A stretch of DNA of 64,000 bases. It comes from Cyanophora paradoxa CCMP329. Its lineage: Eukaryota > Plantae > Glaucophyta. Positions 30,801 through 59,955 of the stretch are shown here, piece by piece (the stretch's first letter is position 1; each line of letters opens with the position of its first letter). The position numbers and the translations under genes were made by a program. The notes beneath the pieces are model-generated. The model was not told where the DNA came from and did no database searches. It saw nothing but the letters and a program-made list of their open reading frames with translations. Where the stretch lies: contig QPMI01000535.1 of assembly GCA_004431415.1 (NCBI GenBank), forward strand, positions 248,001 to 312,000, in the 5' to 3' direction.

Positions 30801-31095
30801 CATTGAGGTACATTCCGGCTGTGCGTATGCGGACGGATTGCATGTCAAATTGGATTCGTACAACCGAACCCAAATACCGACTAAATCACGCACTGGATAT
30901 TAAATACCCTGAGGACCGCTCAAGTGCAAGGCCGCCCAAGGGGGCCCCGGACAGCGGTGGAGTGCCGACGCGCCGGGAGAGGACGGGTCCGCCAGCGAGC
31001 AGCGTGAGCTTCAGCTGCAGCGGCTCCAGAGGCGGCGGTGGAGGAGGACTCGACGGGCTTGGAGGAGGGACGCTGAACGAGTCGGAAGTGGCCAT
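27816..31095 (-). CDS. Single-pass membrane protein with beta-rich (kelch/propeller-like) ectodomain and Ser/Pro linker
   Basis: Exons such as ATFNPVTGVWNEF and YVASLDAWASVWEPVQ; (PS)n linker ~28960-29390; TM LVFAGLVSSLTLLATVAVGVATIAVLLL followed by RRR near 27900-27990. Confidence 0.55.
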
Positions 31096-31212
31096 GGCCT
31101 GGTCGGACCATTCGATCTCGTTGGTGACTGCGGCGCATGCACTCATGATCAGTGACTCATGATCAGTGACCTTGTCAGACCGTCGGACTGCCACTGGGCC
31201 ACGCAGCCTCAG

Positions 31213-31617
31213 TGCTACATAGTAGATTAACCCATGTTCCCCTTGGAAGAAAATTCCGTTTAGTACTACGGCAGACTCAAACTGCCAGCATTGTTTACGG
31301 TGCGAACAGTCAAACTCACTGAGTGGAGTGTGCTCCATGGGTGGTCCAGCCTGCAGCTGGGCTACGTATACCAACAGTCGTGCCAGCATGTTTGGTAAGT
31401 GGGGAACTTGTGAATCACAGGCCAGTGGTTGAGTTGTCGCTCTCATTGGTATACTCAATTCGATATGCACTTGAAGGCTGCCAGTGCTGCCTTGACTCAC
31501 TGTGGTCACTGAGACGGGCTCCACAGAAGAAGAGAAAGTCACTGAGTGATGTATGACTCTGTGACTTTTTTAAAAAAGTAGTGGCAGCCGCTGCCCTTGC
31601 CGAGCTTGGAAGTATGA
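31213..31617. repeat. ~400-bp segment A, present again inverted at 33236-33631
   Basis: TGCTACATAGTAGATTAACC...CTTGGAAGTATGA is the reverse complement (with scattered substitutions/indels) of 33236-33631. Confidence 0.9.
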
Positions 31618-34600
31618 CAAGCAGGGGGGCTCCGCCCCCCCGCACCCCCCCAGTGTTTTTTTGGGTTCTTTGATTTCTTGAGGCTTTTATTCTTCTTCTT
31701 CTAATTAATTAGAATAAAAAATGAGACTGAAGTACTAAAAGTATGAAGACAGAACAGAAGAAGCTGAAGCACTGAGAAACGATTTTTGCTTGGATAGGTT
31801 CGGCCATGAACATGAAGAACAGAACAGATCTGAGTTCATAACAGAAAGAAGAGAGCATTTCAGAACAGATCTAGAAACGATGAAGTGATCATGCAAAAGA
31901 AGCACATGCAATGTATTTCAAAGGTTTGATCATTTATGTTCATTTATGTTATGTTTATGTTCATCGAACATCGAGTTTCGATGCTAGATTCTGGCCATGG
32001 CTGGAAAAGAAAGGGCAAAAGATCTTTGAGAATTGACAAAAACAATATTTTTTGCTTGCAATGATGCCATGATGAATATAATCATTGAATGCATGCATCA
32101 TGATCAATATACAGGTACCATCTAGAGCTCTGTTTTGTTAACGTTTGCAATTGTGCATGTTTTGTGCACGTGGTGCTTGTGTTGTGCTTTATTGTTTGTT
32201 GTCATGTTTTGTTGTTTGTACATTGTGGAACATGTGTACATGTTTTCTTTTTGTTGTGCATGCCAAGATGTTTAATTTATTGTACATGTTTGTTGTTTGC
32301 CAAGAATCGAACCGGTTCTGAATCGGCACTGAGCAGCCAAATGTACCACAGCACTTCAGTAAGAAAAAAGGTAAAAAAAGGACTTTCCATTGACAGAACT
32401 GCCGGATACACAATTTGAGCTTCAAAACTCCACTCTGTGGCAGATCTTGCTGCTTCAGGTGCAGTGCTAGGATGCTTCTTGCCAGTCTTCCTGGCCATGC
32501 TGAAGCAGCTGTAGAGCAGTGCTTGATGGCAGATAGGAAAGCCTTCCAGGTAACAACTGTGCCTCCCTTCCAGCAAGAACCTGATGGGTCAAGGACTTTT
32601 TTTCCAGATCTTTTTTTCCAAAACCGCGTGGTTCTTTTTTTGTTTTTTGTTCAAGATCTTTTTTTTATGCAATTCGCGTGATTGTTTTTCAGAAATGGAG
32701 AAAAACCAACATCAAACTTTTACAGTTACTTTTAGAGTTCAACCAACGACAAGCAGCCATCTTTGCCAGCCTGTGCAACACAGGTTTTTCAGTCCAACGG
32801 ACTACATCATAGTTAGTTAAAGACAGTTCGATTGTCAACAAATAACAAAGAAAGGACAATTAGTTTCTCATGTTTGTTGTTGGCGGGGGGGCTGTGCCCC
32901 CCCGCACCCCCCCAAAGTTGTTTTTGCTTGCGTTGATGTTTGTGGTGTTTTCTTCTTTTTGTTTATTGCTTTTCAAGAATCCAACCATTACTGAATAAGC
33001 ACTACAGTCACACTGTACAGTTCAGTGCGCACGGATATGGCATTTGCTTTTTGTGCAACGTGTGAAGAGATTCATTATTTGTTCTTTGCCAAGTATAGAA
33101 CAGGTTCTGAATCGGCACTGAACAGTCACAGCTGTTCAGGAAGAAAAAGGAGAAAAAAAGCGACTTTCCATTGACAGAACTGCCGGATACGCAATTTGAG
33201 CCACAAAACTCCACTCTGTGGCAGATCTTGCTGCTTCACACTTCCAAGCTCACTGGCAAGGGCAGCGGCTGCCGCTACTTTTTTTAAAAAGTCACAGAGT
33301 CATACATCACTCAGTGACTTTTCCTTCTCATGTGGAGTTTCTCTCAGTGACCACAGTGAGTCAAGGCAGCTCCGGCAGCCTTCAAGTGCATATCGAATTG
33401 AGTATACCAATGAGAGCGACAACTCAACCACTGGCCTGCGATTCACAAGTTCCCCACTTACCAAACATGCTGGCACGACTGTTGGCAGCCCAGGCTGGAC
33501 CACCCATGGAGCACAGTCCAGTCAGTGACTTTGACTGTTTGCACCGCTCTCAATGCTGGCAGTTTGAGTCTGCCGTAGTACTAAATGGAATTTTCTTCCA
33601 AGGGGAACATGGGTTAATCTACTATGTAGCAAGTGGCAAGATCTGTCACAGAGTGGAGTTTTGTAGCTCAAATTGTGTATCCGGCAGTTCTATCAATGGA
33701 AAGTCCCTTTTTTTCCTTTTTTCTTCCTCAAGTACTGTGCCTGTTCAGTGCCGATTCAGAACCTGTTTGATTCTTGGCAAATTTAAACAAGAAATAATGA
33801 ACATGTTCGCAGGTTGATCAAAAAGCAAATGCCATATGCATATTCGCACTGCACTGTACAGTGTGATTTCAGAACATTTGGCAAGCAACATACAATAAAC
33901 AAAACAACATGATAAACACCAACATATGATGCGAGCACCACATGCACAACACATGCACAACAAACAAGACAGAGCTTGTACTTGCATTTTTTGTGACAGA
34001 AATGGTTGGACTCTTGGCAAGCAACATACAATAAACAAAACAACATGGTAAACACCAACATATGATGCGAGCACCACGTGCACAACACATGCACAACAAA
34101 CAAAACAGAGCTTGTACTTGCAATTTTTGTTTCACAAAACAAATAACATTCTTTTCTAGATGCATATGGTATCTGTTTATTGATCATGATGCATGCATTA
34201 TATTCATCATGGCATCCGATGATCATTGCACGCATAAAATATTGTTTTTGTCAATTCTCCAAGATCTTCTTGTTTTTGTCTGAAGTGTTCAATTCTTAAG
34301 CCTCTTGCAATTGTTCAGTGCCGCAATGTTAACGTTCAAGCTTCTTGCCCATGTTCCTGCTAAGAATTGCCCTTTCTTTTCCAGCCATGGCCAGAATCTA
34401 TTAGGGTAGCATCGAAACTCGATGTTCGATGAACATCAACATAACATGAACATAAATGATCAAACCTTTGAAATACATTGCATGTGCTTCTTTTGCGTGA
34501 TCACTTCATCGTTTCTAGATCTGTTCTGAAATGCTCTCTTCTTTTTGTTCAGTGCTTCAGCTTCATTTTCATTCTTTGTGATATGATTGAGCCACAAGAG

Positions 34601-35070
34601 ATATGATATGATTGATATTCAATTTCAAACTTCTTGCAATTGTACAGTGCTTTAGCTTTTCTTCTCATCTTCCTGGCTAAAGCTAAGAATTGCCTTTCAA
34701 TTACTTTGCCAGTCAAGAATTAAACACCAATTGCAAAGCACTATATATATGTATGTTTCATGACAAATTTTTATTTTATTAATTTATTAAAACATAAATG
34801 ATGAAGCCTAGCTTTGGACTACATTGCATTTGGTGCATTGTTTCTTGATTACATTATCAGTGTTTAATTTCTACATCTTTCATGCACTCAGATCTGTTCT
34901 GTTCTTTATGTTCAGTGCTTCAGCTTCTTCTGTTCTGTCTTCATAATTTTAGTACTTCAGTCTCATTCTTTATTCTAATTGATTAGAAGAAGAAGAATAA
35001 AAAACCACAAGAAATCAAAGAGCCCAAAAAAACACTGGGGGGGTGCGGGGGGGCGGAGCCCCCCTGCTTG
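31618..35070. mobile_element. AT-rich non-autonomous foldback DNA element, long imperfect inverted arms, 3-bp TSD TGA
   Basis: Termini TGA|CAAGCAGGGGGGCTCCGCCCCCCCGCACCCCCCCAGTG ... CACTGGGGGGGTGCGGGGGGGCGGAGCCCCCCTGCTTG|TGA; arms alignable over hundreds of bp; third copy of the terminal motif at ~32883; CpG-depleted; no transposase ORF. Confidence 0.8.
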
Positions 35071-35585
35071 TGACTGTTTGCGAATGTTTGTGTTCTCATA
35101 TGCGGTATCATACGCGCACTGACAGATCGGGGACGGGCCAACTTGGCAATAGAAATCAAACTTCGAGGCTCAGCCGGCGAAGATCCCATGACTTTTTCAG
35201 CTATGAATCTCAAAGATATACTGTCTATTGTGAGAAACACCGGGAGGAACAGAATTTAGAGAGAGCCAAAGAAGAAGAAAACAGAGAAGAAGATGAGGGA
35301 AATTCGAGGATATTAAACCACATAGATTGCGAAAAACGATTAGACGAATTGAAAATAAAACGAAAGGAAATAGAAGAGGAATTTAAAAATCGTTCGAGTG
35401 GTTTAACTGTTACTCTGGTTCCGAGAAAGTATTTAACATGGAATGAAAAACATATGATGTGTAGAAACCCGTGGAAAGATTTGGTGAATTACACAAAAGA
35501 GAAAGGAAGATATTATGTATGTCAACAGCGCGTTAATCTCTTCCGTGAAATGGGTATTATGTCATCTTACAACTCATGGGTGTAA
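35071..35585 (+). pseudogene. AT-rich intronless ORF remnant (TE- or virus-derived), charged coiled segment
   Basis: YTVYCEKHREEQNLERAKEEENREEDE...; base composition unlike host genes; followed by several GGGTGTA(A)T motifs to ~35910. Confidence 0.4.
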
Positions 35586-35929
35586 TGTGAATCAATCGGA
35601 AAATTTAAAGTGTAACGGGTGTTAGTTATGGTTTGTTGTTTTTTATGGATTCAATCGAGAAATATGGGTATATTGGGTGTATCATCGGGAATCTCTCGTT
35701 GTTACTGAATGTCGTAAATAAAATGCGGTAAAATTTGGGTGTAATGCATATAACTTCGATTGATTAGATTTTAGATATAACTTCGATTAAATAAAATAGA
35801 TTGTGACTGAGGCTTACTGAGATTTACTGAGATTGGGGATTGGGTTACTGGGAATCATGCGGATATTGTGAAAAGCAGTGAAATATATTGGGGTAATTTT
35901 TGGGTGTAATGCTCACAGCTCAGCTCCGG

Positions 35930-37176
35930 ATGGTCGTACCCCCCTCCGCCACCCTCTTCGCCTTCCCCCCTCCCCCCTCCTCCCCCTCCGCAAACGATTC
36001 CTTCTTCCGCACCCTGGGGGTCCGCTCGTTCCCGTATACGTAGCCTTCCCGGCCCCTCCAGCGCTAGCCCTGATCCCGCACCCCAGATCGAGAGCGCGGG
36101 GCGCGATCTCTCGAAGGACTTTAGGCCGGCGCAGACGATGCAGCTGGGCAGGGGCCAGGTCGTGAAGGCCTTCCAGCCGCAGAACGCGGCCGCCCTCAAA
36201 CAGGCGCCCCAGCTCCCCGCCCTCTCCGATTCTTTCCTTCCTTCCGATCCGCGCTGAGCCTAGCCTCGCCTCGCCCAGGCCGAGGAGGTCATGCGGGCGA
36301 CTCTGGACGTAGCCCTGCGCCTCGAGAGCCTCTCCCTCGGCGCGGAGGCTGACGCCGACGCCGACGCCGCCATCGAGCTCGCCCCGCCCCAGGTGCCCGG
36401 CCTACGGGGGATACTCGACCTCTCTTCTTCTCCCCGTGCCTGATCACGATCGCGCGCGCGCGCAGGCGCTGCTGCCGCCGCTGGAGCCGAAGCCAAACGC
36501 GCGGACGTGGGCGGACGTAGAGGGGCCGCCCGAGCCGGCGGCGGCCCCGGGCCGGCGCCCGGTGCAGGCCTCCGCGTCCGGGCCTCGCCCCCTGGCGTTG
36601 GCCCCCGCCCCATCGCCCCGTCCCCGCCCCGCCCCCGCCCGACGCGCCCCGCCTCCCTTCCCTGAACGTCGTCCTCCCGCCCCGCATCCGTCGCCGCAAG
36701 AAGGCCAAGCCCGCCGAGCAGTCGCCTGCCCCCGCCCCGCCCACGACCGAGCGGCAGCCCCTGCCATCCCTCGCCCCCCGCGGCCGCCCCTCCGACGCCG
36801 CGGCCTCCGTCCAAGCCCCACCTTCCCCCGCCCAGTCCCCATTCGCCCCCTCCGAGATGGTACCCGTCTACATCGTCCCGGCGTACTACGTGGTACCCCT
36901 CTCCCACGTGCACGTGCAGTCGCCGGCCGGCCCCTCCTCCGGCTCGAGCGGCGCCGCGAGCCTCCCGGTGCTTCGAATTCGATCCGCGTGCGCGCCGCGC
37001 CTCGCGCGCCGCTCACCCTCGCGCAGGCGTCCCCCTCGCCCCCGTCGAAGCGGCGCGCCTCGAGCTCGTCGCCGGGGGGCGCAGCCTCCGGATCCCAGGC
37101 GGGCTTGAGCCCCCCCTCCCTGGACTCCTCGCAGGCCCCTACCCCGACCTCGGGCTCGACCCGGGCGACGCCGTAG
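35930..37176 (+). CDS. Pro-rich hypothetical protein
   Basis: Exons MQLGRGQVVKAFQPQNAAALKQ, AEEVMRATLDVALRLESLSL; stop TAG at 37174-37176; start uncertain. Confidence 0.4.
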
Positions 37177-38746
37177 ATTGTACATACACAAGTAGACGTG
37201 AAATATGGACCAGCAGCCTGGCAGACGGACCTGATCATGAGACGGTCCGCTGTGCACGTGGCCCAGCACCCGTCAGCTACGTGTATTGCCGTGTCCTGTT
37301 ACAGATGCGTGGCCTGTGCCATCGCTTCCGGCGCCACCCTCAAGGTCCGATAGAGATCAAGAGCGCATGTGCCCCGGCGCCCCGGCTGAGGCGGCGGGCG
37401 GCGGCACATGCGCAGCACGGCGGAGCCCTTCTTCCTCGCCTTTGAATTCCGAGTTCCGCTTTCGAGCCGGGCGACGTCGTAGACTGTTAGTAGTATGTTA
37501 CGTAGACGTTGAAATTTCGGTTGAATGTATCAAACGGCGCCCCGCCGGGCCGCTGCGACCCTGTCGAGTTTTCACTTCCCATCTGATGGAGCTTATTCAT
37601 GACGTGCACGTGGGTCGACGTCGACCAAAAAAGGATCTCCCGAAGCTCTGTAGACGCGTATACGTACGTCATCTTGCCTAAGCTCGAGAAAATGAAAATT
37701 TTAGACAACGTTAACGAAATCTTCGTGCACGTGCACATGATCACTGATTCAATTCGCAAGAAACCGCCCGCGCTAAGTGCCGCTAACGTCGTCAGCCTAA
37801 CGAGGCTAATTATATATAACGGTGTCTGACACCTGGCGGCCCATGGCCAGCTGCGCATGCAGTGCACCACTGGTCCACTGCACGTGCACGTGGCGGCCCA
37901 CTGGCGGCCCGGCGCCCTCTCTGCCTGCATAATAGTGCATCATGGCACTTTCACCCTGGAGGACAATGCTTAGGACATCGCCGAGTCGGACCGTCGGACT
38001 AGCTTTAGCCTCTACTAAAGCTAGTAGCCTTCAAACTTGAGGTTAGATACAATTGCAATTATATCCTTTCGTGTTTCGTGACTTCACAGCTCGTCATGAT
38101 CACGTCACAGACTCACAGATCTAGACTCTGAGAGTCTGAGAGCTGCCAGACTGCTAGTGCCTGCCACTGCGGAAAATTTAATTGACGCGTACGCGTACGG
38201 GTTGTGACTCGTGAGAACTTGTGACGTGATCATGAAAGGTTGTGACGCCGTGACGGGAAGGCGATTCGGGCGAGGACTCCGGGAGGAACTGGCCCAGTGG
38301 GTCCAAATTTAGACCGTCGGACTGATCATGATTCAGTAGCACTGGGGCTGAGTCACTGATCATGATTGACTGATCATGATTCAGTCATGCATATGGTATT
38401 TTGCTCTATGGCGCCGGCGGGCCGGGTTTTACAAAGTGAAAACGCGGTAATTCATGCCGCGGTAATTTACCCGGTAGTGCCCGACGCCGGGCCCGGCGGG
38501 CCGACGGTAGTAGCCTAGTATATACGTAGCGGGCCACTAGCGGCGAGTCCGCCGGCGACCCTTCTGTACCAGGTAGCGCTACGTACCGTGAAATACTTAT
38601 TTACTGCGCCACAAATTACTGCGTTCCAAATTGTCTGCGCCGGTAGCGCTTTACGCGTTACCAAATTACCGCGTTCTAAAAAATTTCAAGTTTGAACGCA
38701 GTAATATGGTAGCGCAGTACTAGTAGGTATATCAGCGCGGTAATTA

Positions 38747-39150
38747 CTGTAAACGTACGTAGAAATTTTCGTCGAGACTTAATTTCGACAAAACCCGATT
38801 TTTTTGAGAGACTACGGTGGGGCGAACCCCCCGTAGGTAGTGATATTAAGGACAACAAAGCAATCACAAATCAAAGATACAGTAAAGTAGTACAAAATAC
38901 AGAATCAAGAGGGATCACGAGAAGGGACACGATCAGATCTCGACAAAACCCGAAAATCGTGACGAAAATATGGTTCGACAGCATCATATTTTCGTCAGCC
39001 GCAGCTGCAGGACTCCGCCATAGATGGGTCAGCCGTTGATACCCCTCTCCATACAAAATTTCAGTTCCAGAGCATCAAATATTCGTCAAAGCGAGGGTCT
39101 GGCGAATATAGACGAAATAAAGACGCTGTCGAAGATTCCTACGTTTACAG
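38747..39150. mobile_element. MITE B (TA TSD) nested in the right TIR of MITE A
   Basis: TA|CTGTAAACGTA(CGTA)GAAATTTTCG ... CGAAGATTCCTACGTTTACAG|TA. Confidence 0.8.
38799..38939 (-). mobile_element. Short 5'-truncated A-tailed retro-insertion (family 1) with 14-bp TSD
   Basis: TSD TCGACAAAACCCGA at 38785-38798 and 38940-38953; T7 run then GAGAGACTACGGTGGGGCGAACCCCCCGTAGGTAGTGATAT. Confidence 0.85.
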
Positions 39151-40014
39151 TAAGTATTACACGGTACTACGGTAGCGCTGAATCACTGTGCCACTGTACA
39201 CTGCCGCGGTGTTACTGATCATGCCAGCCTGGCAGTGATGATGATGGCTGATCATGACTCAGTGACGGCGGACCCTGCACGGCTCAGTCGCGCTGCTGAC
39301 TCACGCAGCCGATATCGATTCGAGCGGCTGCCCGTCCCGGTCCGACGGTCCGACGTCCGACGGTCACGCCGGCGGCCGCGGCGGATCCACTGCCGCTGGC
39401 CAAGACTCTGAGACGTCGCAGACTCGCAGGCTCACACTGCCTCACAGCCAGAAGTTGCCCAGAATTGAGCGTCACAGCTCGTGCCGCTTGATCATGAGCA
39501 CGCGCATCGCGCGCCTCAAGCTAGCGCTCGCGTCATGACGCTGTGACGAGTCAGTCGGAGTCACCGATAGATCATAGTATATGAGGCGCCAAAACTTGAA
39601 ACTGTGGCTCAAAACTTGCAATTGTACTACGGTAATTTGTCAGCTGGCCATGCCATGATCATGATGGCACCGGGTTGCAGGTCCGGCCCGGCCGGGCGCA
39701 CTTCTCAGAGTCTAGACATCAACTTTTGGCCCAGTGGCAACACTGAGTCGACCGTCGGACACCGACTCTCAGAGTCTACAGCTATATACCAGTACTAGCT
39801 ATAGTACGGTATACGTATACGTGGGCGCGGCGCTGAGCAGCCTGAGCCGCGTACGCAGTACGCACTGCGGCAGGCGCCTCCTTATAAGCAGAAACGCGAT
39901 ACACACGCTTACGGTTGTCCACGCGTACGGTGATCCGCCCTCAGCTGCAGTCTGGATCTGAGACTCGACTGCAACCGCCTCCTAATACGTGGAACGTTTA
40001 CTTAACGCTGCTAG

Positions 40015-43000
40015 ATGACGTGGATAAATATACGTATACGCACGGTTCCGCGGCCGCTGCTTGCGTGGGTTGCAATCATATTCTTCGGCGTGCTGCAGCT
40101 AGCACTGCCCGCCGTAAATGCAGGTGCATCGGATTCCTTATTGTGTAAATTGTATGCGTATACTATATATGTAAGGCCGCGCTGATAATAACAACTGCGC
40201 AGCTGAACCTCGTTCGATCAAAATTGATTCGCCTTCTCCGTCGGCTCCCTTGAAAGCCATCGAGATCCCGGCCGACGCGGTCTTCACCATCAAATGGACA
40301 GCCAACTTTTTGTGCGGTACTGCCACTATGTCGTACTGCCTATCGAGCACTGGCGAGAAAAACAAGCTTGTCGTCGACATTGTGCCTGACTCCGACGCGG
40401 AAGTCCTGGGCCCGACCAAAGCCATCGCGAATCTCATTGGCGGAGACCGTGCGTCACGGCGTTCTCATAATTATATAAGATATATATATATATATATATC
40501 GCGTGGCTCTCGCATATGCTCATGCATATGCAAATGCATACGAATTCCTCTATCGTATACGTAACCGCACCGCAGAAAAGTACTTGCGATTCGGTGGCTG
40601 GCATACCGCCGAGACGCAGACGGCAGTGGTAAGGATGCCGAAGCTGGACAGCAACAATGCCGCTCTGAGGACTAATATTCCCTATCGTCTCCGCTTCTAT
40701 ATGAAAGACGCGACGAAATGGACTCTAGCGGAGCGAAACGTCGAGTTCGATTTCATTATATTCGTGTTGATTGATTCTGTGACACACACTGCAACCGTTT
40801 CGGCAAACTCCGTGCTTCGTGGTGAAACGGTGCGCGCGTCTACATCTTAGCGGCTTTATCTATATTTAGTGACTCACGATTGTAGATCTCCTGCTCGTGG
40901 TCGCTAAGCGCTGGATCGCCGACGTCTTACGTGGACGCATCAACCAGTTATCTGGGTCTGTACTTTGCAACAGACACTGACGGCGCGAGCACGAACCTCG
41001 GGATCACAAGTCTTTACAGCACGGTGAGCAGCGGCACAGAGGCTTTCCAGGTTCGGAAATTCGATGCCTTGCGAATTGCTACGTATATGTATATTCACCA
41101 GAACGCACGGTTGGTTTCGTAACCGCTCTACAATTAGATATCATCGACAGCAGCGACGACAACGTACGCTTGCCGCTACATTACCATTTATACACAGAAT
41201 TACAATAGCCCTCTCTCCACGGTATGCAAGTATCCAGGAAGCACTCCATGTTCCCGCAAACTCCAAATTGTCAGGTAATTGCACATGACCCTCACACAGG
41301 CAATTGCCAGCGGCTCTAAATTTATTAAAGCTCTAAAGCGCTTTAGTGATTTTGATTCTATGGCCCACGCAGGGCCTCTAGCTCAGAGTTTACAGTCACG
41401 GCGCCGGGGTCGGCTGCGCCGGCCACGGCGCCCACGCCAACTGCTGCTCCCGTGTCGGGCTCATCGACGTCGACTTCGACGTCTCCGAACAAATACGGCG
41501 CTTGCGGCCTCAGCAAGACGTGCTCCGCATGTTCCGGTGCGCAAGGACGTGAGAGTAGGCTGCTCCGAGCACGTTCTACTGTTATCGAGCTCGGCGCGCA
41601 GGCGAGTGTCGCTGGTGCTCCACCGGCGGAATGGGCGACTCGGGCGTCTGTATGCCTGCATCGGGTTCGACAGCTACTTGCGCAAGCCTCAACGGGGCGA
41701 TCACGGCCTCCGTCGATCTCTGCCCGAAGGACACATGCGCGGCGCTGACGTCTTGCACAACCTGCGCCGGTTAGAGTTCCCCTGTCCTGAATATGTCGTC
41801 TTCCTGATTGCGATCGCAATTCACTGGCGCGACTGCGCGCATGGTCAGCCACTGGATGCTCGTTTTGCGGATCAGCTGGCGACGGCGGAATATGCACTGG
41901 CGCAGCTTTCGACGGGTGCCCTTCACCGTTCGAATCGTTGACTCCCACCTCTGTTCAGGGGAGCTGCCCCGCACCGTGCTCTTCCTTGACATCGTGTAAT
42001 TCGTGCCTCGGTTCGCGCATTCTTGCGTGGGCTCTTACTTGACGTTTTACTAAAACGCGCGGCCACGGCGTCGACCAGGCTCTTCGAGTTGCAGGTAAGA
42101 GAGCTAGAATGTTTGATTCCCGATTTAATTCCATCCATATTCGGCTAGCGCTTAATTATAATTCCTGCAGCTGGTGCGAGGGCGCCGGAACGTGCATCGC
42201 AAAGTCGGCATCGTGCGCATTGGGCAAGGCCATCACTGGCCAGGCAGCGTCATGCCCAGCTCCCGACTCGCGTGGATGCTCAAAGCTCACGTCATGCTCT
42301 TCCTGCTTTGGTGCGTATAATGCGATCGAATGTTTTACGAGATCCGCACGCGTTTGCGCTTATGGATACGCGTACGTCTGCGCATGCAGGAGTAACAAAC
42401 TGCCAGTGGTGCGGAAATGCGGGCGATGCCGGGCAGTGTTTGCCTGTTGAGGACATGAGTCCGGATCCAAATACGGGAAAAGAGTCCAAGTGCAGTTCGA
42501 CGAGCAAGGTCCTGAGCCTCGGAGCCTGCCCAGCACTCTGCTCCGCGCAGACGCAGTGCTCTGGCTGTACGGGCAAAGGCTGCAAATACTGCGGTGGCGC
42601 CGGCGAAGGCGGTCTCTGCCTAGGCACGGCATCAGCTTCGTGCACCGGCATTCACGCGAGTCTCAGTCCGATCGTCGTACCGGCACAATGCCCTGCTACG
42701 TGCACGTCGCACACCACATGTGCAAGCTGTGCAGGTGCTCACGGTCACTTGCTTTGCTTGCAATCTCTGCAATTGACATCGCTCGCAGTGGTGCCTGGAT
42801 GCGCCTGGACATCTGCGGCCAAAGGCGACGGCGGCACATGCTCGTCCCTCGCCGACGCCCCAGCGACGGGATCCATCACTGCCGTTTCGTCGTGTCCACG
42901 CACGTGCACCTCGATTTTGTCGTGCGGTCCTTGCGCGGATTCGGGTGCGCTTTGCAGACGAATGGCCATGGCCCGTTTGCATGTTGCACTTGTTCAATCG

Positions 43001-45442
43001 TGAAATGCGAAGGTCGGTGCTTCTGGTCTACGGCGACGTCAAAGTGCAGCTCCACTGCGACGGCTGGGGCCATTTCGGAGAGCGGCAAGTGTCCGGCCAC
43101 CGCCTGCACTTCGAGTCTCTTCTCCCACAGCTGCCTGTCGTGCACGGGGCCTGACGCCCTCGGAGCATGCCACTGGTGCGACGCGATCCTTTTCGATATA
43201 TATACTTCGGAATCTGAATAAAAATTCGAAATCTGATCACGGGCATGATTGCGCGGGTGCAGGTGCTCAGACAGTACAGGAGCGGGTACGTGCGCAACCG
43301 CAGGCCAATGCAAGTCGGGCATGGCATCTTTTGGAGAGTCTTCACAGTGCTCGTTTGCCTGTGCGCTCAATAGCCCGCAATTGTGCGTGTACGATTGCAA
43401 ATTAATCGCGTTCATGGCAGCCAAGTTCACCATTCGACTCTCGTACGGAACTGCGACTGTGCCTCCCCAGTTCTGGTACGACAGCGGTGTGCGAGAGGAC
43501 CTCAGAATCTGGTTTGCGGAGCTGGCAAAGATCGACAAACGCCTTGTCAAGGTTCGCATAAATCGCAATTCTATATTTTTCACTTTAAATCAATATGCGG
43601 CTCCGTTTCTCGTCAGCTTATAATAATCTCAGATCTTGTCGCTTACCCAAGGCTCCGTGATCGTGGAGGGCGAGGTGAGAGGATAATTAAAACATTGCGA
43701 TCGATTTTATTTGTCGCGAGAAACCCAGAGAGATTCACGCATGCGCACACGCTCGATACCTGCAGATTCAATCCAGCGAATCGACGGCAAGCACGACTGC
43801 TGCAGTCGGCACGCTCATCTCCAGCCTCAGCAAGGCAACCACCAAGAAGCAGATCGGATCGCTCATGCTCGGCCCGACGCGCGCCTGTGACTCGGCCTCG
43901 AACTGTTACTCGAACAACGTATTTGCTGCGGAGGAGGCAGCGGCAGCATCTGCAGCCACCTCGAGCGGCGTTAACGGGGGCGCCGTTGCCGGTGGCGTCA
44001 TCGCTGCGATTGTTTTCATGTGCGTTCGTTCTGAATAAAGCTATTTTCCGTTTAGAGTAATTAAGCTGTTCATTAAATACAATATTGATCACGCACAACC
44101 GCAGAGCCGCCGTTTTCTTCTTGGTCTGGTGGTTCGTTATCCGCAAGCCGATGCACCCGCTTCCGGAGGGTATGAAGTACCACGCCTTCATCTCGTACCG
44201 CCGGGACGACGGAGTCGACCGCGCGCGGGGTCTGCAGTCCCTCCTCGCCCGCCACCAGTGCGTCTCCCTTTGAACTATTTCGATATCATTGGGGCCGCAA
44301 TACTTACTTGAGAACGAACTCGTACAGATTCAAGGCCTTCTTCGACGCGCGGAGTCTGGGCGCTGGGGACTTCGGCACTCAGCTCACTGTCCGTCCATGG
44401 CCAACGCGCGCGATGGTTGCCGCTCCCACATACTGATGTCCCTCCGCAGAGTGCGCTGAAGAGCTCCGTCGCCTTCATTTCGGTGCTCTATGAGCACACA
44501 CTCGACCGTGCTCGGGATCCTGTGAACGGCCACAGTGACTGGGTCCGAATCGAGATTGTGACAGCGCTCAAGGAGAAGAAAGTGCGCGTTTGCGCATATT
44601 CTTTAACGTTGACGAATTCATATCCTGATCGCACGAGGATCGCGATTGCAGACGATCATCCCCGTGTTCGACCGCGTCTTCAAGCAGAAGGACAAGATGC
44701 TGAGGGACGAGGAGCTCCCGGAGGAGATGCGCGGCTTCACACGCAACAACGCCGTCTTCTTCGACGCCATCGACGGCGCCGAGGACGCCGAGCGCAAGAT
44801 CGTCCACTTCGTTAGCGACGCCGTCCAGGCGCTGCTTGAGAAGGAGAATCGCAGGTGCGCAGCCGCTCCGATCGCGAAGATCTCAAATATAAGCTTGCAC
44901 ATTGCCATTGAAGCTAGAGATTGAGCTTTGCATTTCGCAGGGGCTTCCGGGCGTTGTTCCCCTTCTCCAAAATTAAACAACCCGCCTCCGGTCGCTTGTC
45001 GGATGTCGAGAAGGGGAGCAGTGACTCCCTGGCCGGCGAGGGTGAGAAGAAAACGGCAGCCCGGGGACCTGCAACTGTGCCCTCCAGCTCCCAGCTTAAG
45101 ATCTGGCCAGAGCCCGGGAGTTCCGCTCCGCAACCGGCTGCCGCCAGCTCAGAGCGGCCTGCAGTCGATCACAATCACGGATCCGGAGCGGCCGGCGCCA
45201 TGCATTCGGCCACCGCACCGGCCGCGGCTGCGGCCGCTGGCGCCCCCGCTTCGATCGCGAGCGGCGTCCATCCGAACCAGTTCGAGTGCCCCATCTGCCT
45301 CGCCGCCAAGGAGCGGCGCTTCGCGCTCGTCCCCTGTGGGCACGTCGCCTGCGCCGAGTGTGCAGCGAGCCTCATGGGCGAAGGCAAGCCCTGCCACGGC
45401 TGCCGGGGCGCCATCACCGGCCTTCAGCGTGTCTTTGAATAG
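40015..45442 (+). CDS. Type I membrane receptor: signal peptide, beta-rich N-domain, ~8 PSI-like Cys repeats, SEA-like module, TM, SARM1-like TIR domain, C3HC4 RING
   Basis: ATG 40015 ...PLLAWVAIIFFGVLQLALPAVNA; repeats of type C-x5-C-x2-C...C-x-W-C...CP at 41500-43350; GSVIV 43651-43665; TM GAVAGGVIAAIVFIAAVFFLVWWFVI-RK; TIR YHAFISYRR...FFDARSLGAGDF...DWVRIEIVTAL...IIPVF...LPEEM; RING CPIC...PCGHVACAECA...CHGCR; TAG 45440-45442. Confidence 0.88.
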
Positions 45443-45621
45443 AGCGTTCACTTTAATTTCCTTCAGCATACACGTAGCTATATATAGATCGCAAAAGTCT
45501 ATCGATATCTCGCAACATGCATATGCTGCACGCAGTACAATCTGGCTATATATATAGGTTTTGGCTTGAAAATCTCTATTCTTCAATTCCGTATTGAAGG
45601 CTCAAACGATTTGCATTAGCA

Positions 45622-45672
45622 CTCATATCACTACCTACGGGGGATTCGCTCCACCGTAGTCTCTCAAAAACA
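45622..45672 (+). mobile_element. Family 1 retro-insertion, very short copy
   Basis: ATATCACTACCTACGGGGGATTCGCTCCACCGTAGTCTCTCAAAAA, the reverse-complement homologue of the 38799/52639 copies; possible TSD ATTAGCA. Confidence 0.7.
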
Positions 45673-46095
45673 ATTAGCATCGCCCAATTTAATTTATCTC
45701 ACCGACTAGATAACACTGAGGACCGTCGAGTGCTGTGCTCTGTATTTGGTGTTTGTATATCTATTAGCTAGTGCTAGGTCTGGTCTGTAGCTTTAAAGTG
45801 TTTAGGTTCAATTAGGTCTTTAGGTCTGGTCTGGTTTTACTCCGTAACGAAGAATTCGTTTCGTTTGGTTTAGGTTTCGTTGGAATTTTCTTAACGAAGC
45901 ACGCATATAGTTCTTAAGCTTATCACATGCAAATAGCCTCTGGCATACATGTAAATAGCGAGTTTCCGGCGCGGGCGCCTCGTTAGCCAATGGCGGAGGC
46001 ATCGAGCTCCTTGCAATTTGCGTCTGTTATGCATTTATTTGGCAACGACAGATGAGCGGAATCGCGGGAGCGGCGCCCCAAACTCGGACCCGGGC

Positions 46096-48991
46096 TCAGT
46101 CTCCCGGGGCCTCCTCGATGTCGGGGGCGCCGCGGCGCCCCCGCCAGGCGCCCCAGCGCTCCGCCGCCCGCGCCGCCAGACGCCGCGCCTCCGCTGGGTG
46201 CTTCGCTGCGCCGCGGGGTCGGAGGTGGAGGGGCGAAGGGGAGGGAGGGGGGAGGGGTTCGGGCACCGTACACGTTCAGGAGGGTGCCTGCCGCCCGAGG
46301 CCGAGCGAGTCAGAAACGGGCGCGGATGGGGGGGGGGGGGGGAAGGGCCGGGGGTACCGGAGAAGAGGAGGAGGGATGAGACGAGGTAGAGGTTGGACCA
46401 GGGCTTGGGGTAGAAGATGAACTGCGGCGGGTTAGACGGGGAGGCGCGGAAACGGTACCCTTCCCCCTGGACCCACCGCCTCTCAGCCCCCTCCGATCCC
46501 CGCCGCCCTGGTCCCCTCTAATCCCCGTCGCCCCGCCCCCCGCTGGGCGGACCGAGAGGCAGATTGTGAGGAGCTTGCGGCATGAGGTCACCACCACCTG
46601 CGCCGCGGTGGGTACGGGGTGCCGGGAACGGGAGGGGGGGGGGGGGGGGGGGCGCAAGGACCGTCGTGACGGCGCCGAAGAGCTGCAGTGAGGCGAAACA
46701 ATATGAAAAGGAAGGAAGGAGGAAAGGGGGGTACGCGCCTTGACGGAGGCGAGGACGAGCTGCAGGCCGACGTACGAGGCGGAGCAGAGCTGCAGAGGGG
46801 GGTACAGGCTGTGAGGGCCCGAGGCGGAGCCGGAGGGGTAGTGGGGAGGAGGGGAGGGGCTTCGCCTCGCACGGCGCTAAGTCGGGTAGGAGTCCGAGCC
46901 CGTCGCCCCTTGCCCGCCTCCCCCACCCCCCCCCCCTCTCCGCCCCCCCCCCGCTCTCCCCCCCCCGCCCCCAACCCCCTTTTCGCGCACGAGGAGGAGG
47001 CGCCAGTAGCAGGAGGGGTTCCTCGTGAAGAAGCGGAGGGCGGCGCGGAGCTCCCCGTGGCGAGGACGACGAGGAGGTTGAGGCCGGCCGCCACCGCGTA
47101 CGAGCACGCGCACATCTCAGCCGAGGAGACCCCGTGCCTGGGGCAAGGGAGAGCGGAGGGGGAGGAAGATGGTGAGCCGGGGGCGGGGGGGGGGGGGGGG
47201 GCGGGGGGGGGGGGGGCGGGCGAGAGGGCGGCGTCTCCGTCTTCTTCTTATGTTATAACTATGTGCCCGTGCTCCTATGTCTCCTCTCTGGTGTGCTGCG
47301 GACCGTGTGAGCATCTTCTCCTGGACGTTGCCGAGGAAGGCGTCCGAGGCGAGGGCGACGAGGAGGAAGGCGATCCCGCGCGCGTCGAACTTCGGCGACA
47401 CCGACACGTCTGCGGGGGCGCGAGGGAGGGAGGCCCCGGGCATGAGACCTCGAGGCGGCGATGGAGGGGCCTAGACGGAGCCTAGACTGCAGAAGAAGCC
47501 TAGACGGAGCCTAAACTTGAGCCTAGGCTGGAGCCTAGACCCCAGACTCGGGCGACACCGACATCGACGGCGCGGAGAGGGGAGGGAGGCCCCGCGCCAG
47601 GCGCCCCGCCCCGCCCCGCCCCGCCCCGCGGCGGGGCGCCTGGTCCCCCGCCCCGCCGGCCGCACCGGCGAGGGTGAAGAGGGTGAGGCCAAGGAAGAAG
47701 AGGAACGACGAGAGGTACCTGGAGGGGTACGGCATCAGGAAGGCGGGGGGGGGGGGGAAGAGGGGGGGGTGCCGCACTCGAGGCCCGAGTAGCGTTTTCG
47801 GAGGACGAGGAAGCCCGCGAGCTGCGGGGGTACGCGGTTCGAAAGGGGTACGGGGCGGGGAAGGGCCGAGGGTGTGCGGGGGCACCATGACGGGAATGAC
47901 TGGCGGAGGAAACGGGGCGCAGGTTGGCGAGATGGGGTGGGGGTACGCTTGGCGAGGCGCGCCGTACCCTTGGCGCTCTGCGGGCGGGAGGAGGCACGTG
48001 AGGGGGGTACGCGAGCGCCAAATCGTGGTGGCCGACCTTGAAAACGATGCTAATAGGGTAGTTCACGTGATTGAGGGACCTGGCGGGCGGGGGGTGGGAT
48101 AGCACGACGGGTCAGGGCGGGGTAAGAGGACGGGATGGACGCAAGAGGGGGGGGTAGACGAACATGGAAGTGAAGCCGGAGCTTCGTGCGCAAAAGCGGG
48201 GTACGTTAGAGGGGCGCGGCGGGTCGCGAGGCGCCGCGCCGCGTGCACCTTATGAACGCCAGGGCTGGGTGGGGGTACCAGAATTTAGCAGCGCCGGCAA
48301 AGGAAAAGGGGCGCGGGCGGGATTCGAACCGCCGATGAAGAGGTACGAGGTCCAGGGGCCCTTCCGCACCGTCTCGTTTCGCTGGAGCCTGGCGCAGAAA
48401 AGCGATCAGGGCGGATCGAGCCGCGTCGAACGGGACCAATTCTTCTTCTTCTTCTTCTTCCAGGCACCGCTCGAGCTGGGAGTAGGAGGCGGCGATAGTG
48501 AAGATGGAGAGGGTCATGACCCACGTGAACGTGAAGCCCGGGATGTGGAAGAGGCCCTCCTGCATGTACGCTGCCCGCGGATCAAATCTCACGAAATCAA
48601 ATCTCGGGGGAGGGCGGGCGCGGGACACCGTAGATCTGGTAGACGGAGAAGATGCCGCCGGCACAGACGAAGAAACGAGCCCGGGGGCTCCCCCTCGGAG
48701 GTCATCGAATCCATCCTGGGGGTACTGTCCACCCCGGTCGCGGCCTCCGATCGCGTACCCCCCGGCCGATCGACATCGCGGGCCGGGGCGCAGGCCGAGG
48801 AAGCTCGGGAACGGAGGCGAAGGCAGGAGGAGGAGGAGGAGGAGGAGGGGGTCCGGGGGCGGCAGGAGCAGCAGCTGCGGGCGGCCCCGGGCACCAAAAA
48901 CAGCGCCGCACCCGCCCGCGAGCCGGTGCGGATCGATGTCGCCCGCCCGCCCGCGCCCCCGCGCGGCCGGACCGTCTCGTGACCGGGGCAT
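46096..48991 (-). CDS. UAA-family nucleotide-sugar/PAPS transporter (SLC35B3-like)
   Basis: YMQEGLFHIPGFTFTWVMTL, SLNHVNYPISIVFK, PKFDARGIAFLLVALASDAFLGNVQEKML, VVVTSCRKLLTICLS; 3' end approximate. Confidence 0.8.
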
Positions 48992-52638: not shown

Positions 52639-52732
52639 TTTTTTTGAGAGACTACGGTGGGGCGAACCCCCCGTAGGTAGTGATATTAAGGACAACAAAG
52701 CAATCACAAATCATGATCAAAGATACAGAAAA
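52639..52732 (-). mobile_element. Family 1 retro-insertion with 16-bp TSD
   Basis: Near-identical to 38799-38880; TSD ACTGAATCAATAGCAA (52623-52638) / ACTGAGTCAATACCAA (52733-52748). Confidence 0.85.
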
Positions 52733-54269: not shown

Positions 54270-55323
54270 TAGATTTCCAGAACATAAAAAGTTTAATTAA
54301 ATGCGCCGGTCCTCTCAGAGAGTCATGCATAGTCACTGAGTCTGACGCGTACGTACGTCGACTCCGGATTCCGAATCATTTTTATCTGAGTCCTCTCGCA
54401 GACTGAGTCGCAGTGAACGTGACGTCGACATATGCATGGTGAATTATTAACATTGCAATTTATTTTTGATCGACTGATCGCTATCTGCAGTCATTTTGCA
54501 CGGTTCGAGATGCATACTACCCGGTATGATATGCCCGGGCCCGCTTGCTGGCCATCTTGCATTTGGCCGCCGGCGGCGCCGCCGCGCCGGGCATGCATGG
54601 TTAACGTTCTTCGAACGTGGTTTACCCACGGTACGGTGGTTTACCGTCCGACCGTCGGACGGTCTACCCGGGTACGTCGTGAATGACCGTCGCGATCGGG
54701 CTTGTCATGCGCATCATACATGCATGCGCTCTCACTGAGTCAGAGTCTTAAACTTGAATCGAAAGCTGTAACGGTAGCTACCGGATATCTAAATAGAGGA
54801 CCTTTGATTTTTCTGCGAGAAGCGGACAGGACTTTTTTCCTAGTTGCAATTGGCAAGCTTAAGTTGGCAACTTGGAATTGCAAGCTTTAAGTTGGCAAAG
54901 ATAGAACTGTCGGACGCTGATAATTAGTGGGGCCCGAAATTAGTGGACCGTACAAGTGCCGGTCCCTCACTGAGTCATCGTCCGGACTCCGGACTCCGGA
55001 TCCGTGACATTCCGTGTACGTGCGGCCCGCTGGCCCGTACACTTGCGCGTTCGGCTTTGGGGCTTATGGGCTTATGCATATGAGCAATTCAATTTTGTCA
55101 GCTCTTCCAGTTGATTTCCGAGTTTCCGACACTGACAACCGACGCCTCAATTCGGTGAAAAACGCCCTCGAGCTCGCCAATCGCGACCCGGTGACCGCCC
55201 GCGAGGGGCAATACTATACAAAGGCTCAATTTGTTGACGTAACTGCGGCTGCGCGCCCATATGCGTCGGGCCGGGTTGCAGGTTTCCAAATCGCCGTCGT
55301 CGCCGGCGCCGTCGATGCCCGCC

Positions 55324-57748
55324 ATGGCCACCTACGCATTCGCCTACGCACACATATGCGCGGCGTGCATTCTGATCACGAACATCGTGGTGCCGGTCGC
55401 GTCTCAGCTCCAGGCGTCGCCATGCGGCGTGACGTTCGACACCTCGAAAACGTTCCAGGTGGTCTCGCGTAACGATACCACCAAGTGCTGGGGAGCAGGA
55501 GCTGTCGGTCCGGTGACTCCTGGCGTGTATCTGGCCACCTGCAGTCCAAGTGCGCACGCAAACGCGTATGCGCCCCGCGCTGCAACCGCGCAAACACACC
55601 TGCGCACTGCGGCATAAGCTTAAGCATGTATATATATGCATGCAGAAGCAGATCTAGACGACGCGCTTTCGAATTCGAAGTTTCTGACAGCGATGCTTGG
55701 TTCTTCATGCGCAGATGATTTAACACAGTTCTTTTCGGCGAACTTTACGGGGTATTCAAATGGAGAACATAAATACGAGCTCATCTATCCAGCGGCCATG
55801 ACGAGCATCTCTGGCCTAGACCTGCACTCCAAAATAATCGGCACGAGTTCGCTGAACCGTTACGATGGAGGCGGAAATGTCGCAGAAACAATCAATGGAG
55901 TGCGTACGAATACGCGCTCGCAATTTCTTGAGACTTCGACTTTTTGTTCTCACGCTAATTTATATATATGAGTATGTACACACATACGATATCGATTATT
56001 AAATGAGTTCATTATTAGCTGCAGTGCTATTGAGTTTAATTTGAATTTCGCATCATCAATGCAGTTGTTTGGGAGAGCTGGCACACCCGGCGGCGGCGAT
56101 GCGTGGGCCATGGCCGTCACGCCAAGAGCAATCGTTCGCATCTCGAAGCCAGGAGAGAATCTCACGTTGGTCGCCCCTATTGCACCCAAGTACTCCTACA
56201 GCGGGTCTCCATTCAGCATTTACAGCAGTGCAATTCTGTACAGACCTGTTATTGAAGGTGCGCTCGTGAACGAGATCAATTGTCTGCGCTCTGGACTCCG
56301 GGAAGTCATAATCGGAAGTCATAATTATATATTATAACTTGCCAGCGCATGCGCACTCTGTGGTTTCGATCGATTTGAACGCGGGCATTTCCTTACTATA
56401 GCGCTTGTGCTTAAATCGATATCGAGGCATATATATGATCATGTGCCCTTGATTATCTATAGCTAATAAGATTGTGGGTTGCTAGGTGATTCGGAGTTCG
56501 AGTGGATGTTCCGCTACGACGATAATACGATTTTTCCTTCGTGCTCGTTCCCGCAGCCGGCCGCGGTGCGCGCGGGGCCGAGTTCTATGATGTGTATACG
56601 TCACATTGGGCTTGGCGTTGGAATGCTGACCATGCCGTTCCAGACACCAAGCCCCTCACCGAGTCCGAGCCCTTCCCCGAGTCCGAGTCCCTCGAGCTCT
56701 CCGACCCCAGGCGCTAGTCCTTCGCCAAGCCCTTCGCCCATGGCCACGGCCAGCCCTTCTCCCAGCCCGACCACGATCGCCACGCCTTCGATTTCCACCA
56801 GCACGCCGTCGCCGAGCCCGTCGCCGAGCGCCATGGCCACTCCCAGCGTGCAGCTGCAGCCCCGAGCAAATGTCACAGCGTTAGAAATTGTTCAAGTGGT
56901 CATTGACGGGAAATCCGTGCGTTCATGCATATGCTCATGCTCTGACCTCGGCTATCGCTGATGTGATGTGATCTCGAGTTTTCGAACCGCTTACAATTAC
57001 TCGGCGCACTGCTATACGCAGTTTGACGTTTCGGGGGGAAGCGCTGTTTTATCCTCGGATCCGGTGCGCTTGCGAGCAATTGATGTTACGAGCTTCTCTC
57101 ACGGATTGTTTTGGAGTTGACCATGGGCTTGGGATTCGTGATTTCAGGACGGGACAAAACGAATTGCGCTTGGCGGTCTCGTCTTCTCAGCCCCTGCGGA
57201 GGCAAATAATAATTACTTTAGATATAAATCAATTGATCATGCTTTAATTGTGCGGGTACCATGCGTCCCGCAGACGGGGAGCACGGATTTCGTGATGATC
57301 AAAGGCAGCAATCTTCCGGTACGAGTTTCCATAAAATCATTGCTTTCAATCTCAAGTGACAAACTTGGCTTCGAAATAGGCAAACAAACCAGTCAAGATC
57401 TACATTGTGAATCCGAATAATAGCAGCCAAAGGGTCGAGGCCCGTGAAGCGTCCATCCCAGACTCGGAAACCATCAGATTCAGTGCGTGCAATTAATTTG
57501 ATAGCGCGAGTGATCGGGTACTATGCCGTCGAGAATTCGAATTAGAAAAAGATAGGAAATCGAACCGGAGCGTCACGGAAAGACGCCCTGAGGCCCTGAT
57601 GTCCTATCTTATCATAGGTTGTGTTTTTGCTGATGTCCGGGGATCCTGAATTGTTTTTGCTCCGCAGAGGTCCCGCCGCTCCCGAAGAGCACCAGCGCCG
57701 GCAGCCGCCGCGCACGCGCCCTACTCCAATTCGTGTCCGGATCCTCGG
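55324..57748 (+). CDS. Secreted protein with ricin-B-like N-terminal motif and (PS)n linker; runs into the virus-like insertion with no clear stop
   Basis: Signal peptide MATYAFAYAHICAACILITNIVVPVAS; TKCW...GVYLATCSP.DLTQFF; PSPSPS linker 56641-56850; last visible exon ~57667-57748 is followed by a GT donor. Confidence 0.55.
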
Positions 57749-57949
57749 TGCATTGCAATTTCCAGCCCCTCGTAAATCCTTTCCGGCTGCCGTAAGCTTA
57801 CGTGTACGTATATACCGTAGTACTAGTACTCAAAACTCTTTATGCCACCCCCCCCCCTCTCCCCCCCTACAACACACATGTACACACATAAACCCCCAAA
57901 ACCCCACCCCCTCCTGCAGTATGACCTGCGGATCGAGTCGGCGTCTGCT

Positions 57950-58257
57950 ACACATATACAACGCCCGGCTTTTAGACCTCGGCTTATTTAAATTGATCTC
58001 GTTAGTATATAACCTGTATTTATAATATATCTATCGTGAATATGTGTGTATTTTATCTGTGATATGTATTTATTTTATCGTGGGTTATAGCTTCTTTTTA
58101 ATAAAATATGTGAAATATGTATAGTTTATGTGAAGTTTAGCTATATTCTCGATGAGTAGACTTATATATCTCGTGAGATTCATTATAGTTTAGGTGTGAC
58201 TCAACTTAGTTTAATTATAACTTGCCTCAGTCTAAAAGCCGGGCGTTGTATATGTGT
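57950..58257. repeat. 28-bp perfect inverted repeat around a 252-bp AT-rich spacer
   Basis: ACACATATACAACGCCCGGCTTTTAGAC (57950-57977) / GTCTAAAAGCCGGGCGTTGTATATGTGT (58230-58257). Confidence 0.95.
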
Positions 58258-58420
58258 GTTGTTCTGAATTTTCAATATAAAAGCGACGATCACGCGCCGT
58301 TTTATCAAAAACAACTACCATGAGCTGCATGGAACGTTCTGTATGCGGCTCTCTATAAAACAAAGTAGATCTATGATATATTATGATTGATTCTTTTGTA
58401 TTTTAATTGGTCTTATTCAG

Positions 58421-58792
58421 TGTTACAGGTGTTACAGGTTTATCCCAAAGTCCGCCCTAGGAGTGGGGTCTTGGTTCCCGAGTTTGGGCAAGACCTGTAA
58501 CACCTGTAACAACGTAAACAATTATCGTGTGCTGCATAAAACATTTCGCGCGCATCGAAAATATGTGATAGTGAATAGTTTCGCACTGAAAACGATACGA
58601 AATTGATCGTTATAATACAAAAATAATTACTACTGATATTATTATGATATACTAAGACTGATATTTTGTTGTTTTAATAGGTTCTTACTGAATTAGGTCA
58701 GTGTTACAGGTGTTACAGGTTCATCCCAAACTTTGCCCTAGGAGGGGTGGGGGATAGGAAACTTTGGGATAGACCTGTAACACCTGTAACAC
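58421..58792. repeat. Two inverted-iteron cassettes, family (TGTTACAGG)2
   Basis: Arms 58421-58439/58493-58511 and 58701-58720/58773-58792; both spacers contain CCCAAA..GCCCTAGGAG..TTTGGG. Confidence 0.95.
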
Positions 58793-58849
58793 CTTACTGA
58801 TTAGCACGTAAATGCATGAGTTTCGCATCGAGATCGTGCGGCTACACAT

Positions 58850-59946: not shown

Positions 59947-59955
59947 TCTTTTACT

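Follow-up and report, generated by a model that had tools for sequence, protein, structure and literature searches.

The glaucophyte Cyanophora paradoxa CCMP329 carries a gene whose predicted product is Toll-receptor-like in layout and SARM1-like in its TIR domain, and is a member of neither family. The gene was identified in a stretch of 64,000 nucleotides (nt) of DNA (assembly GCA_004431415.1, contig QPMI01000535.1, positions 248,001 to 312,000 of the forward strand), hereafter the window, where it occupies positions 40015-45442 on the + strand. The protein is predicted to comprise, in this order, a signal peptide, an N-terminal domain of about 275 amino acids (aa), a linker, eight Cys repeats, a module with the motif GSVIV, a transmembrane (TM) helix, a TIR domain, a low-complexity linker and a RING domain. 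This architecture is real at the DNA level, the splicing being predicted, and it appears to be undescribed. An earlier note on this DNA did not know it from described proteins, and it was found neither among the homologues nor in the table of a published TIR atlas. Eukaryotic SARM1-type TIRs are known mainly from cytosolic ARM-SAM-TIR proteins, and receptor TIRs mainly from animal and choanoflagellate proteins with leucine-rich repeats (LRR) or immunoglobulin (Ig) domains followed by TM and TIR. The protein is interpreted here as a type I surface receptor whose clustering would assemble NAD+-cleaving TIRs, and whose RING would ubiquitinate the receptor or a partner, a reading to which a probability of roughly 0.4 is given.

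The gene model, hand-built and checked by script, has 22 exons and 1270 codons (3813 nt) in a frame without stops, from the ATG at 40015 to the TAG at 45442. All 21 introns are of the GT..AG type, with lengths of 53-127 nt and a median of 79; the accessible text of the C. paradoxa genome paper gives a mean intron of 86 base pairs and states that its gene models need manual curation (PMC6704402). The GC content is 0.61 in the coding sequence, 0.70 at third codon positions and 0.47 in the introns. Contigs from sequencing run X1 (DNA) span the gene without differences, and thus the gene is not an assembly chimera. The TM-TIR-RING part is present in public annotation as a C. paradoxa protein of EukProt (P0001, 360 aa), to which exon 21 is a 100% match; the join of the ectodomain to this part belongs to the present model and its predicted splicing. 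The single spliced frame with a single-pass receptor layout, in a unicellular eukaryote, that had been proposed in the earlier note has been reproduced in this model.

Sequence and structural modelling both assign the TIR to the SARM1 type, set apart from the group of Toll-like receptors (TLR), interleukin-1 receptors (IL-1R) and MyD88. The domain scores above the Pfam TIR_2 threshold (36.1 bits against a cut-off of 28), and PADLOC and NCBIfam returned partial TIR matches only. All 19 PDB sequences matched at E<1e-10 are SARM1 or TIR-1, and no chain of the TLR/IL-1R/MyD88 group was found among the 21 matches at E<=1. The alignment-based model reached a predicted local distance difference test (pLDDT) value of 88.6. 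Its fold is closest to SARM1 (Z 21.1, root-mean-square deviation 1.7, 140 aligned residues) and then to TIR-1 (Z 18.5), while IL-18R, MyD88 and plant TIRs gave Z 14.9 or less; identity to SARM1 and TIR-1 in the structural alignments is 31-34%. The SARM1-type motifs and the Glu at 44552-44554 described in the earlier note, which had also called for a fold prediction, agree with the PDB matches, the alignment and this model.

The protein contains two hydrophobic segments, one in the signal peptide (aa ~13-35) and one in the TM helix (aa ~909-933). In a single-sequence model of P0001 (pLDDT 42.5 overall), the helix at 35-64 is the sole confident part. The terminal C3HC4 RING noted earlier was recovered with PF13920 (E=1.8e-10, 40.9 bits against a cut-off of 27), and its PDB matches are the RINGs of cIAP, RNF4, CBL and TRAF6.

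From these parts a mechanism can be proposed. The eight repeats, knotted by disulfides, would form a stalk that carries the domain at aa 37-312 away from the cell, where this domain would bind a ligand, and contact outside the cell would cluster the SARM1-type TIRs inside it. Self-association of the TIRs in the plane of the membrane might stand in for the SAM-driven oligomerisation of SARM1, with NAD+ loss or an ADP-ribose (ADPR)-type messenger as the outcome. The RING would most likely end the signal by self-ubiquitination and uptake, or else relay it, and the GSVIV module may cleave itself, permitting shedding. That the receptor defends the cell against microbes or viruses is a guess, by analogy with TIR domains elsewhere. 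If the interpretation is true, the Toll layout arose again, in a glaucophyte, from a different TIR lineage, and the receptor offers a natural test of whether a SARM1-type NADase can be activated by clustering from outside. It would further point to a family of TIR surface sensors, as yet unstudied, in a lineage of central importance for plastid evolution. The TIR domain is small, and assays of it are easy. The finding loses value should the TIR prove inactive or the ectodomain belong to a separate gene.

The points that weigh against this interpretation lie in the TIR and its branch, in the extracellular modules and in the join between ectodomain and TIR. The TIR is on balance expected to be catalytic, yielding NAD+ loss or an ADPR-type messenger on self-association. 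In SARM1 numbering, the equivalents of F565, Y568, R569, D594, L598, G601, F603, L607, W638, E642, P655 and N679 are kept, and the position of C629 is occupied by Ala. The position of W662 carries Gln (aromatic in 133 of the 152 other rows) and that of P663 carries Lys (Pro in 143 of the 152, including all 8 other Cyanophora rows); H685 and Y687 are replaced by Ala and Ile, with an insertion of one residue. According to a preprint accessible in part (10.1101/2024.11.19.624255), SARM1 activation depends on R569, F603, L607, W662, H685 and Y687. Since most non-animal rows likewise lack H685, and this loop is aligned with gaps, these changes make catalysis less likely, and no more than that. Protist TIRs can be NADases, the membrane-anchored TirC among them (PMC13142454; 10.64898/2026.04.20.719644, both accessible in part). 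The available text of the latter screen reports cyclic-ADPR (cADPR) products from only 4 of 29 Glu-bearing TIRs of unicellular non-animal eukaryotes; Cyanophora is not mentioned in that text.

The receptor TIR might instead have little or no enzyme activity and serve as a scaffold, nucleating cytosolic SAM-TIR paralogues that cleave NAD+. The RING would then be a TRAF6-like ligase, and the whole a TLR-adaptor pathway made from one TIR clade. This explanation is somewhat doubtful. It is favoured by the lost equivalents of W662 and P663 and by the long branch of the receptor TIR, together with the cytosolic SAM-TIR and LRR-SAM-TIR paralogues P0004, P0109, P0135 and P0169, which belong to the same clade, keep the Pro and mostly keep the aromatic residue. 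It is disfavoured by the retention of the Glu and of the full primary pocket despite that long branch.

The paralogues were placed by phylogenetic analysis. A representative search returned 5106 proteins at E<=0.001, of which the best 150 were used. In a FastTree analysis of 165 TIR rows, eight further rows, all from C. paradoxa, join P0001 in one group with support 95; IQ-TREE gave this clade 99/97 (44 of the 165 rows) and 98/94 (32 of the 165 rows). The clade, whose count had been sought in the earlier note, holds at least eight proteins including P0001, a lower bound, as paralogues were counted from protein matches only. Its position beside the SARM1-like rows is weak (90/79 and 85/46), and the tree includes three animal rows, one of which (P0113) is so labelled from its tree position. 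The receptor TIR has the longest branch of the clade (1.29-1.51), a further point against the main interpretation. In an approximately unbiased test, a grouping of P0001 with TM-bearing prokaryote-type TIRs, picked after the tree had been seen, was not rejected (p=0.077); direct descent from such TIRs is disfavoured by both sequence trees.

The Cyanophora clade includes the layouts SAM-TIR-TIR and LRR-SAM-TIR, a coiled-coil TIR on the same contig as the gene, and the receptor-like P0009 (tig00020830_g14506). P0009 has an N-terminal hydrophobic segment, an ectodomain, a TM helix and a TIR, and is a predicted second single-pass receptor, so the receptor layout is present twice in the clade. Its ectodomain has two Cys-containing repeats and its tail is rich in Pro, Gln and Tyr. 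The equivalents of W662, P663 and H685 are kept, and P0009 may therefore be a better test case for NADase activity. Among the best 149 TIR relatives, the TM helix follows the TIR in 94 and precedes it in 3, which indicates that membrane anchoring is common in the SARM1-like TIR group; a RING was found in none, and the order seen here, with Cys repeats and RING, was not met again among them. The 94 proteins with an N-terminal TIR, a TM helix and a variable outside domain (within P0007-P0151) are mostly metagenomic and are apparently a large bacterial receptor-like family with SARM1-type TIRs.

The receptor arose by domain shuffling in the Cyanophora TIR expansion. Because the genome also encodes cytosolic SAM-TIR paralogues, which are possible adaptors, it need not be self-contained, as the earlier note had supposed. 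Tentatively, the SARM1 TIR lineage may have given glaucophytes a Toll-like pathway of independent origin, in which a receptor combining sensing, NAD+ cleavage and ubiquitin ligation, P0009 and the cytosolic SAM-TIRs would form a surface-triggered immune or death system of a basal archaeplastid alga.

The extracellular region begins with a domain absent from the earlier description (aa 37-312), which is likely to be a beta-rich, ligand-binding part of the receptor. It has no Pfam, NCBIfam or PDB match, and its likeness to the P0009 ectodomain is non-significant. Of the eight Cys repeats that follow, five have 8 Cys, one has 7 and two have 6. Scored against a leave-one-out profile built from the other seven, each repeat outranks all of 200 shuffles, r7 and r8 only by a narrow margin. 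The PSI domain (PF01437) is defined by eight Cys with a CxxC...CxWC core, and the Cys spacing of the repeats fits it at the level of the pattern. The repeats named PSI in the earlier note thus stand as repeats, and as PSI domains they are candidates by pattern: the best Pfam score, 13.3 bits where 23.1 is the cut-off (E=0.11), came from a single exon, and neither PDB, including a search with a repeat profile, nor Atlas gave a match. These tests are weakened because exon boundaries split the repeats. No LRR was found in a Pfam scan of 14 ectodomain exon pieces. No ectodomain homologue appeared among 2962 candidates with a pooled three-exon query, which is a weak test; none of the 228 pattern matches to exon 11 in metagenome contigs was confirmed, and Atlas was also blank. 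The ectodomain (aa 37-904, 40203-43970; 26% Ser/Thr) contains no N-glycosylation sequon among its 20 Asn. Shuffled sequences contain 5 on average and none in 0.26% of 5000, in a single post-hoc test.

The label SEA fared much like PSI, and both are pattern-level leads. The GSVIV motif (43651-43665) lies inside the membrane-proximal module, as had been described. No profile matched exons 15 and 17 of this three-exon module, exon 16 being too short to scan. According to the accessible text of PMC6954182, a G-S-V-V-V-type motif marks SEA autoproteolysis, and cleaved SEA domains come apart under force. If the module behaved in this way next to the membrane, the tether might hold the TIR off until force or proteolysis parted the self-cleaved halves. 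A TIR-RING fragment would then be freed to polymerise in the cytosol, as in Notch or TirC. TirC without its TM helix is toxic in amoebae (PMC13142454), in line with such a release, which is nevertheless unlikely here: the hydrophobic-moment pattern expected of SEA is clear for the first strand and the helix only.

The ectodomain and the TIR-RING part very probably form one transcript. P0001 starts at Met870 of the 1270-aa model, shares with it 268 identical residues and all 5 of 5 introns compared (between exons 17 and 22), and removes one further in-frame intron of 123 nt at 45042-45164. It consists of TM, TIR and RING only, the ectodomain being outside the public model, and codon scoring favours the frame used here in just 9 of the 16 exons upstream; both points count against the join. 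When ranked among decoys, introns 15 and 16, which form the bridge, reach the top 1.1% and 3.4% with their donors (261 decoys) and the top 1.6% and 2.8% with their acceptors (250 decoys). The codon score for exons 15-17 is highest in the model frame, read-through from exon 16 meets a stop 3 codons beyond its donor, and 33 codons lie in frame upstream of the annotated Met870. Six acceptors (introns 4, 7, 8, 11, 12 and 14) score no better than at least one third of decoy AGs, and the boundaries of these introns are therefore less sure.

Given the start of the public model at Met870, the gene could in reality yield just the 360-aa TM-TIR-RING protein, with the exons upstream of it coding for another, secreted protein; alternatively the locus, a GC-poorer island (0.56 vs 0.70-0.72) between high-copy repeats, could be a copy that was silenced recently. 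Either is highly improbable. No space for a promoter or terminal exon exists between exons 16 and 17, and the signals of intron 16 are strong. The 3813 nt contain no stop or frameshift and an intact micro-exon, and the observed/expected (o/e) CpG ratio of 1.24 is not depleted, as compared with 0.57 for the block rich in repeats at 31-36 kb. Runs X2 and X3 are DNA, because their contigs read through introns. Four presumed-RNA runs of other samples (X4, X7, X10 and X11) have no contig over the exons, which has no bearing on expression; their short matches at 44181-44226 run on into sequence fitting the paralogue P0049.

Adhesion receptors often carry modules of the Cys-repeat and SEA type, and a receptor of the present layout could serve cell recognition, adhesion or stress sensing through an ADPR-type calcium messenger rather than death. 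According to the accessible text of 10.64898/2026.04.20.719644, cADPR is produced by many eukaryotic TIRs that do not deplete NAD+, which would suit such a function. It is nonetheless very unlikely: the closest characterised TIRs, SARM1 and TIR-1, deplete NAD+, and the family appears confined to its lineage and shuffled in its domains, a usual trait of defence genes. A viral origin of the gene was rejected on its 21 introns, the lack of a relative among viral contigs, viral TIR folds of at most 16% identity and a distance of ~13 kb to the virus-like block.

Features of the gene and of the neighbouring virus-like block, in window coordinates
Feature	Residues	Position	Strand	Remarks
Predicted signal peptide	1-36	40015-40122	+	Arg-rich n-region, hydrophobic core (aa ~13-35), small-residue end; cleavage site by eye, from hydropathy
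N-terminal ectodomain of no recognised family	37-312	40203-41397	+	~275 aa
Ser/Thr/Pro/Ala-rich linker	313-347	41398-41502	+	From sequence
Eight tandem Cys repeats	348-775	41503-43350	+	6-8 Cys each, core CxxC...Cx[WFY]; about one exon per repeat
Micro-exon, 16 nt		42079-42094	+	Required for repeat 3 to stay in frame; intact
Membrane-proximal module, ~95 aa	779-875	43421-43882	+	SEA-like by pattern and position only
Single TM helix, then basic residues	~909-933	43982-44141	+	By hydropathy; consistent with type I topology
SARM1-type TIR	~945-1100	44175-44843	+	Exons 18-21
Glu1027, GAG codon	1027	44552-44554	+	Aligns with SARM1 catalytic E642; invariant in 93-row alignment
Low-complexity linker		44941-45286	+	Contains the possible in-frame 123-nt intron 45042-45164
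C-terminal C3HC4 RING	1220-1258	45287-45403	+	Eight zinc ligands; Pfam zf-C3HC4_3, PF13920
Exons 1-11		40015-40123, 40203-40448, 40576-40829, 40886-41050, 41138-41274, 41373-41548, 41602-41769, 41849-42010, 42079-42094, 42171-42310, 42390-42734	+	
Exons 12-22		42789-42944, 43013-43175, 43263-43360, 43421-43551, 43633-43674, 43766-44019, 44105-44257, 44328-44388, 44450-44581, 44652-44854, 44941-45442	+	
C1q-domain protein		59956-60981	-	In 58-64 kb block
Fibre-like repeat protein		61003-62343	-	PHROG matches

The gene is flanked by two inverted copies of a 46-nt hairpin-plus-poly(A) repeat (38801-38846 and 45625-45670), which occurs again at 52641-52686. The copy at 38.8-39.1 kb is part of a very high-copy element, and these sequences are possibly the 3' ends of retroelements. 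A ~60-nt piece at 45678-45743 matches contigs at a depth of ~1,400 (DNA) and 1,900-2,800 (presumed-RNA runs), with the gene at ~36, and is possibly an organelle fragment or a repeat. Rfam gave nothing in 37500-47000. The AT-rich nested inverted repeats at 31000-36000 (CpG o/e 0.57) are unlike the remaining window and are likely to be old methylated repeats. A second intron-rich gene (~55260-57800, + strand) occupies an island of lower GC; its product, with a stalk rich in Ser and Pro, is apparently secreted or exposed at the surface. This second gene ends beside a low-GC block (58000-64000, GC 0.40) of intron-less minus-strand open reading frames with inverted repeats near 58-59.5 kb. This block is likely to be the end of an integrated virus-like element, as the earlier note had it, and nothing ties it to the receptor gene. 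The fibre-like reading frame has no relative in viral contigs, and Polinton-like viruses have been reported in C. paradoxa (PMC12220804, in its accessible part).

Within the literature searched, which largely excludes subscription journals, no description of the gene or its architecture was found, and the words TIR, Toll and receptor do not occur in the accessible text of the C. paradoxa genome paper (PMC6704402). The down-sampled table of the published TIR atlas has no entries for PF01437, PF01390 or PF13920; it lists two cytosolic TIR+RING proteins and one PSI_integrin match in a clade-10 TIR, and none of its 15 glaucophyte rows is from the Cyanophora receptor TIR family. PSI, SEA and RING are likewise absent from the 52 of 85 SARM1-clade rows that were accessible, in a table that does not mark TM helices. 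The two TIR+RING proteins, from Filamoeba and Helgoeca, resemble the present one in carrying both domains on one chain, but their TIRs are not in the SARM1 clade and no ectodomain is listed for them. Another parallel is offered by attractin and MEGF8, single-pass proteins with PSI domains that are coupled to the C3HC4-type RING ligase MGRN1, although there the two parts are separate polypeptides and there is no TIR. The membrane-anchored SARM1-like relatives, mostly metagenomic and one from Oscillospiraceae, also have a single TM helix linking the TIR to a domain outside the cell, but mostly in the reverse order, without Cys repeats and with no RING in 149. Dictyostelium TirC is likewise a membrane-anchored protist TIR and a shown NADase; unlike the Cyanophora protein, it is related to TIR-STING and has an N-terminal helix only, without ectodomain or RING (PMC13142454).

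With SARM1 and Caenorhabditis elegans TIR-1, the Cyanophora protein shares the TIR sequence, the predicted fold, the catalytic Glu and the main pocket. It differs in its membrane anchoring behind an ectodomain, its C-terminal RING and the changes at W662, P663, H685 and Y687. No ARM or SAM domain was found in Pfam scans of the exons and P0001, and the TM helix stands directly before the TIR. In one data set, as far as its accessible text goes, LRR-TM-TIR proteins occur only in choanozoans and Ig-TM-TIR proteins only in animals (PMC6040629). With Toll-like and IL-1 receptors, the predicted gene model has in common a signal peptide, a repeat ectodomain, one TM helix and a cytosolic TIR, and with the Kinase TLRs of choanoflagellates the fusion of a further signalling domain in the tail. 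Unlike in these receptors, the repeats are Cys repeats and not LRR or Ig, the TIR is of the SARM1 type, the tail bears a RING in place of a kinase, and the host is a glaucophyte; the Toll-like design was probably assembled here independently of animals.

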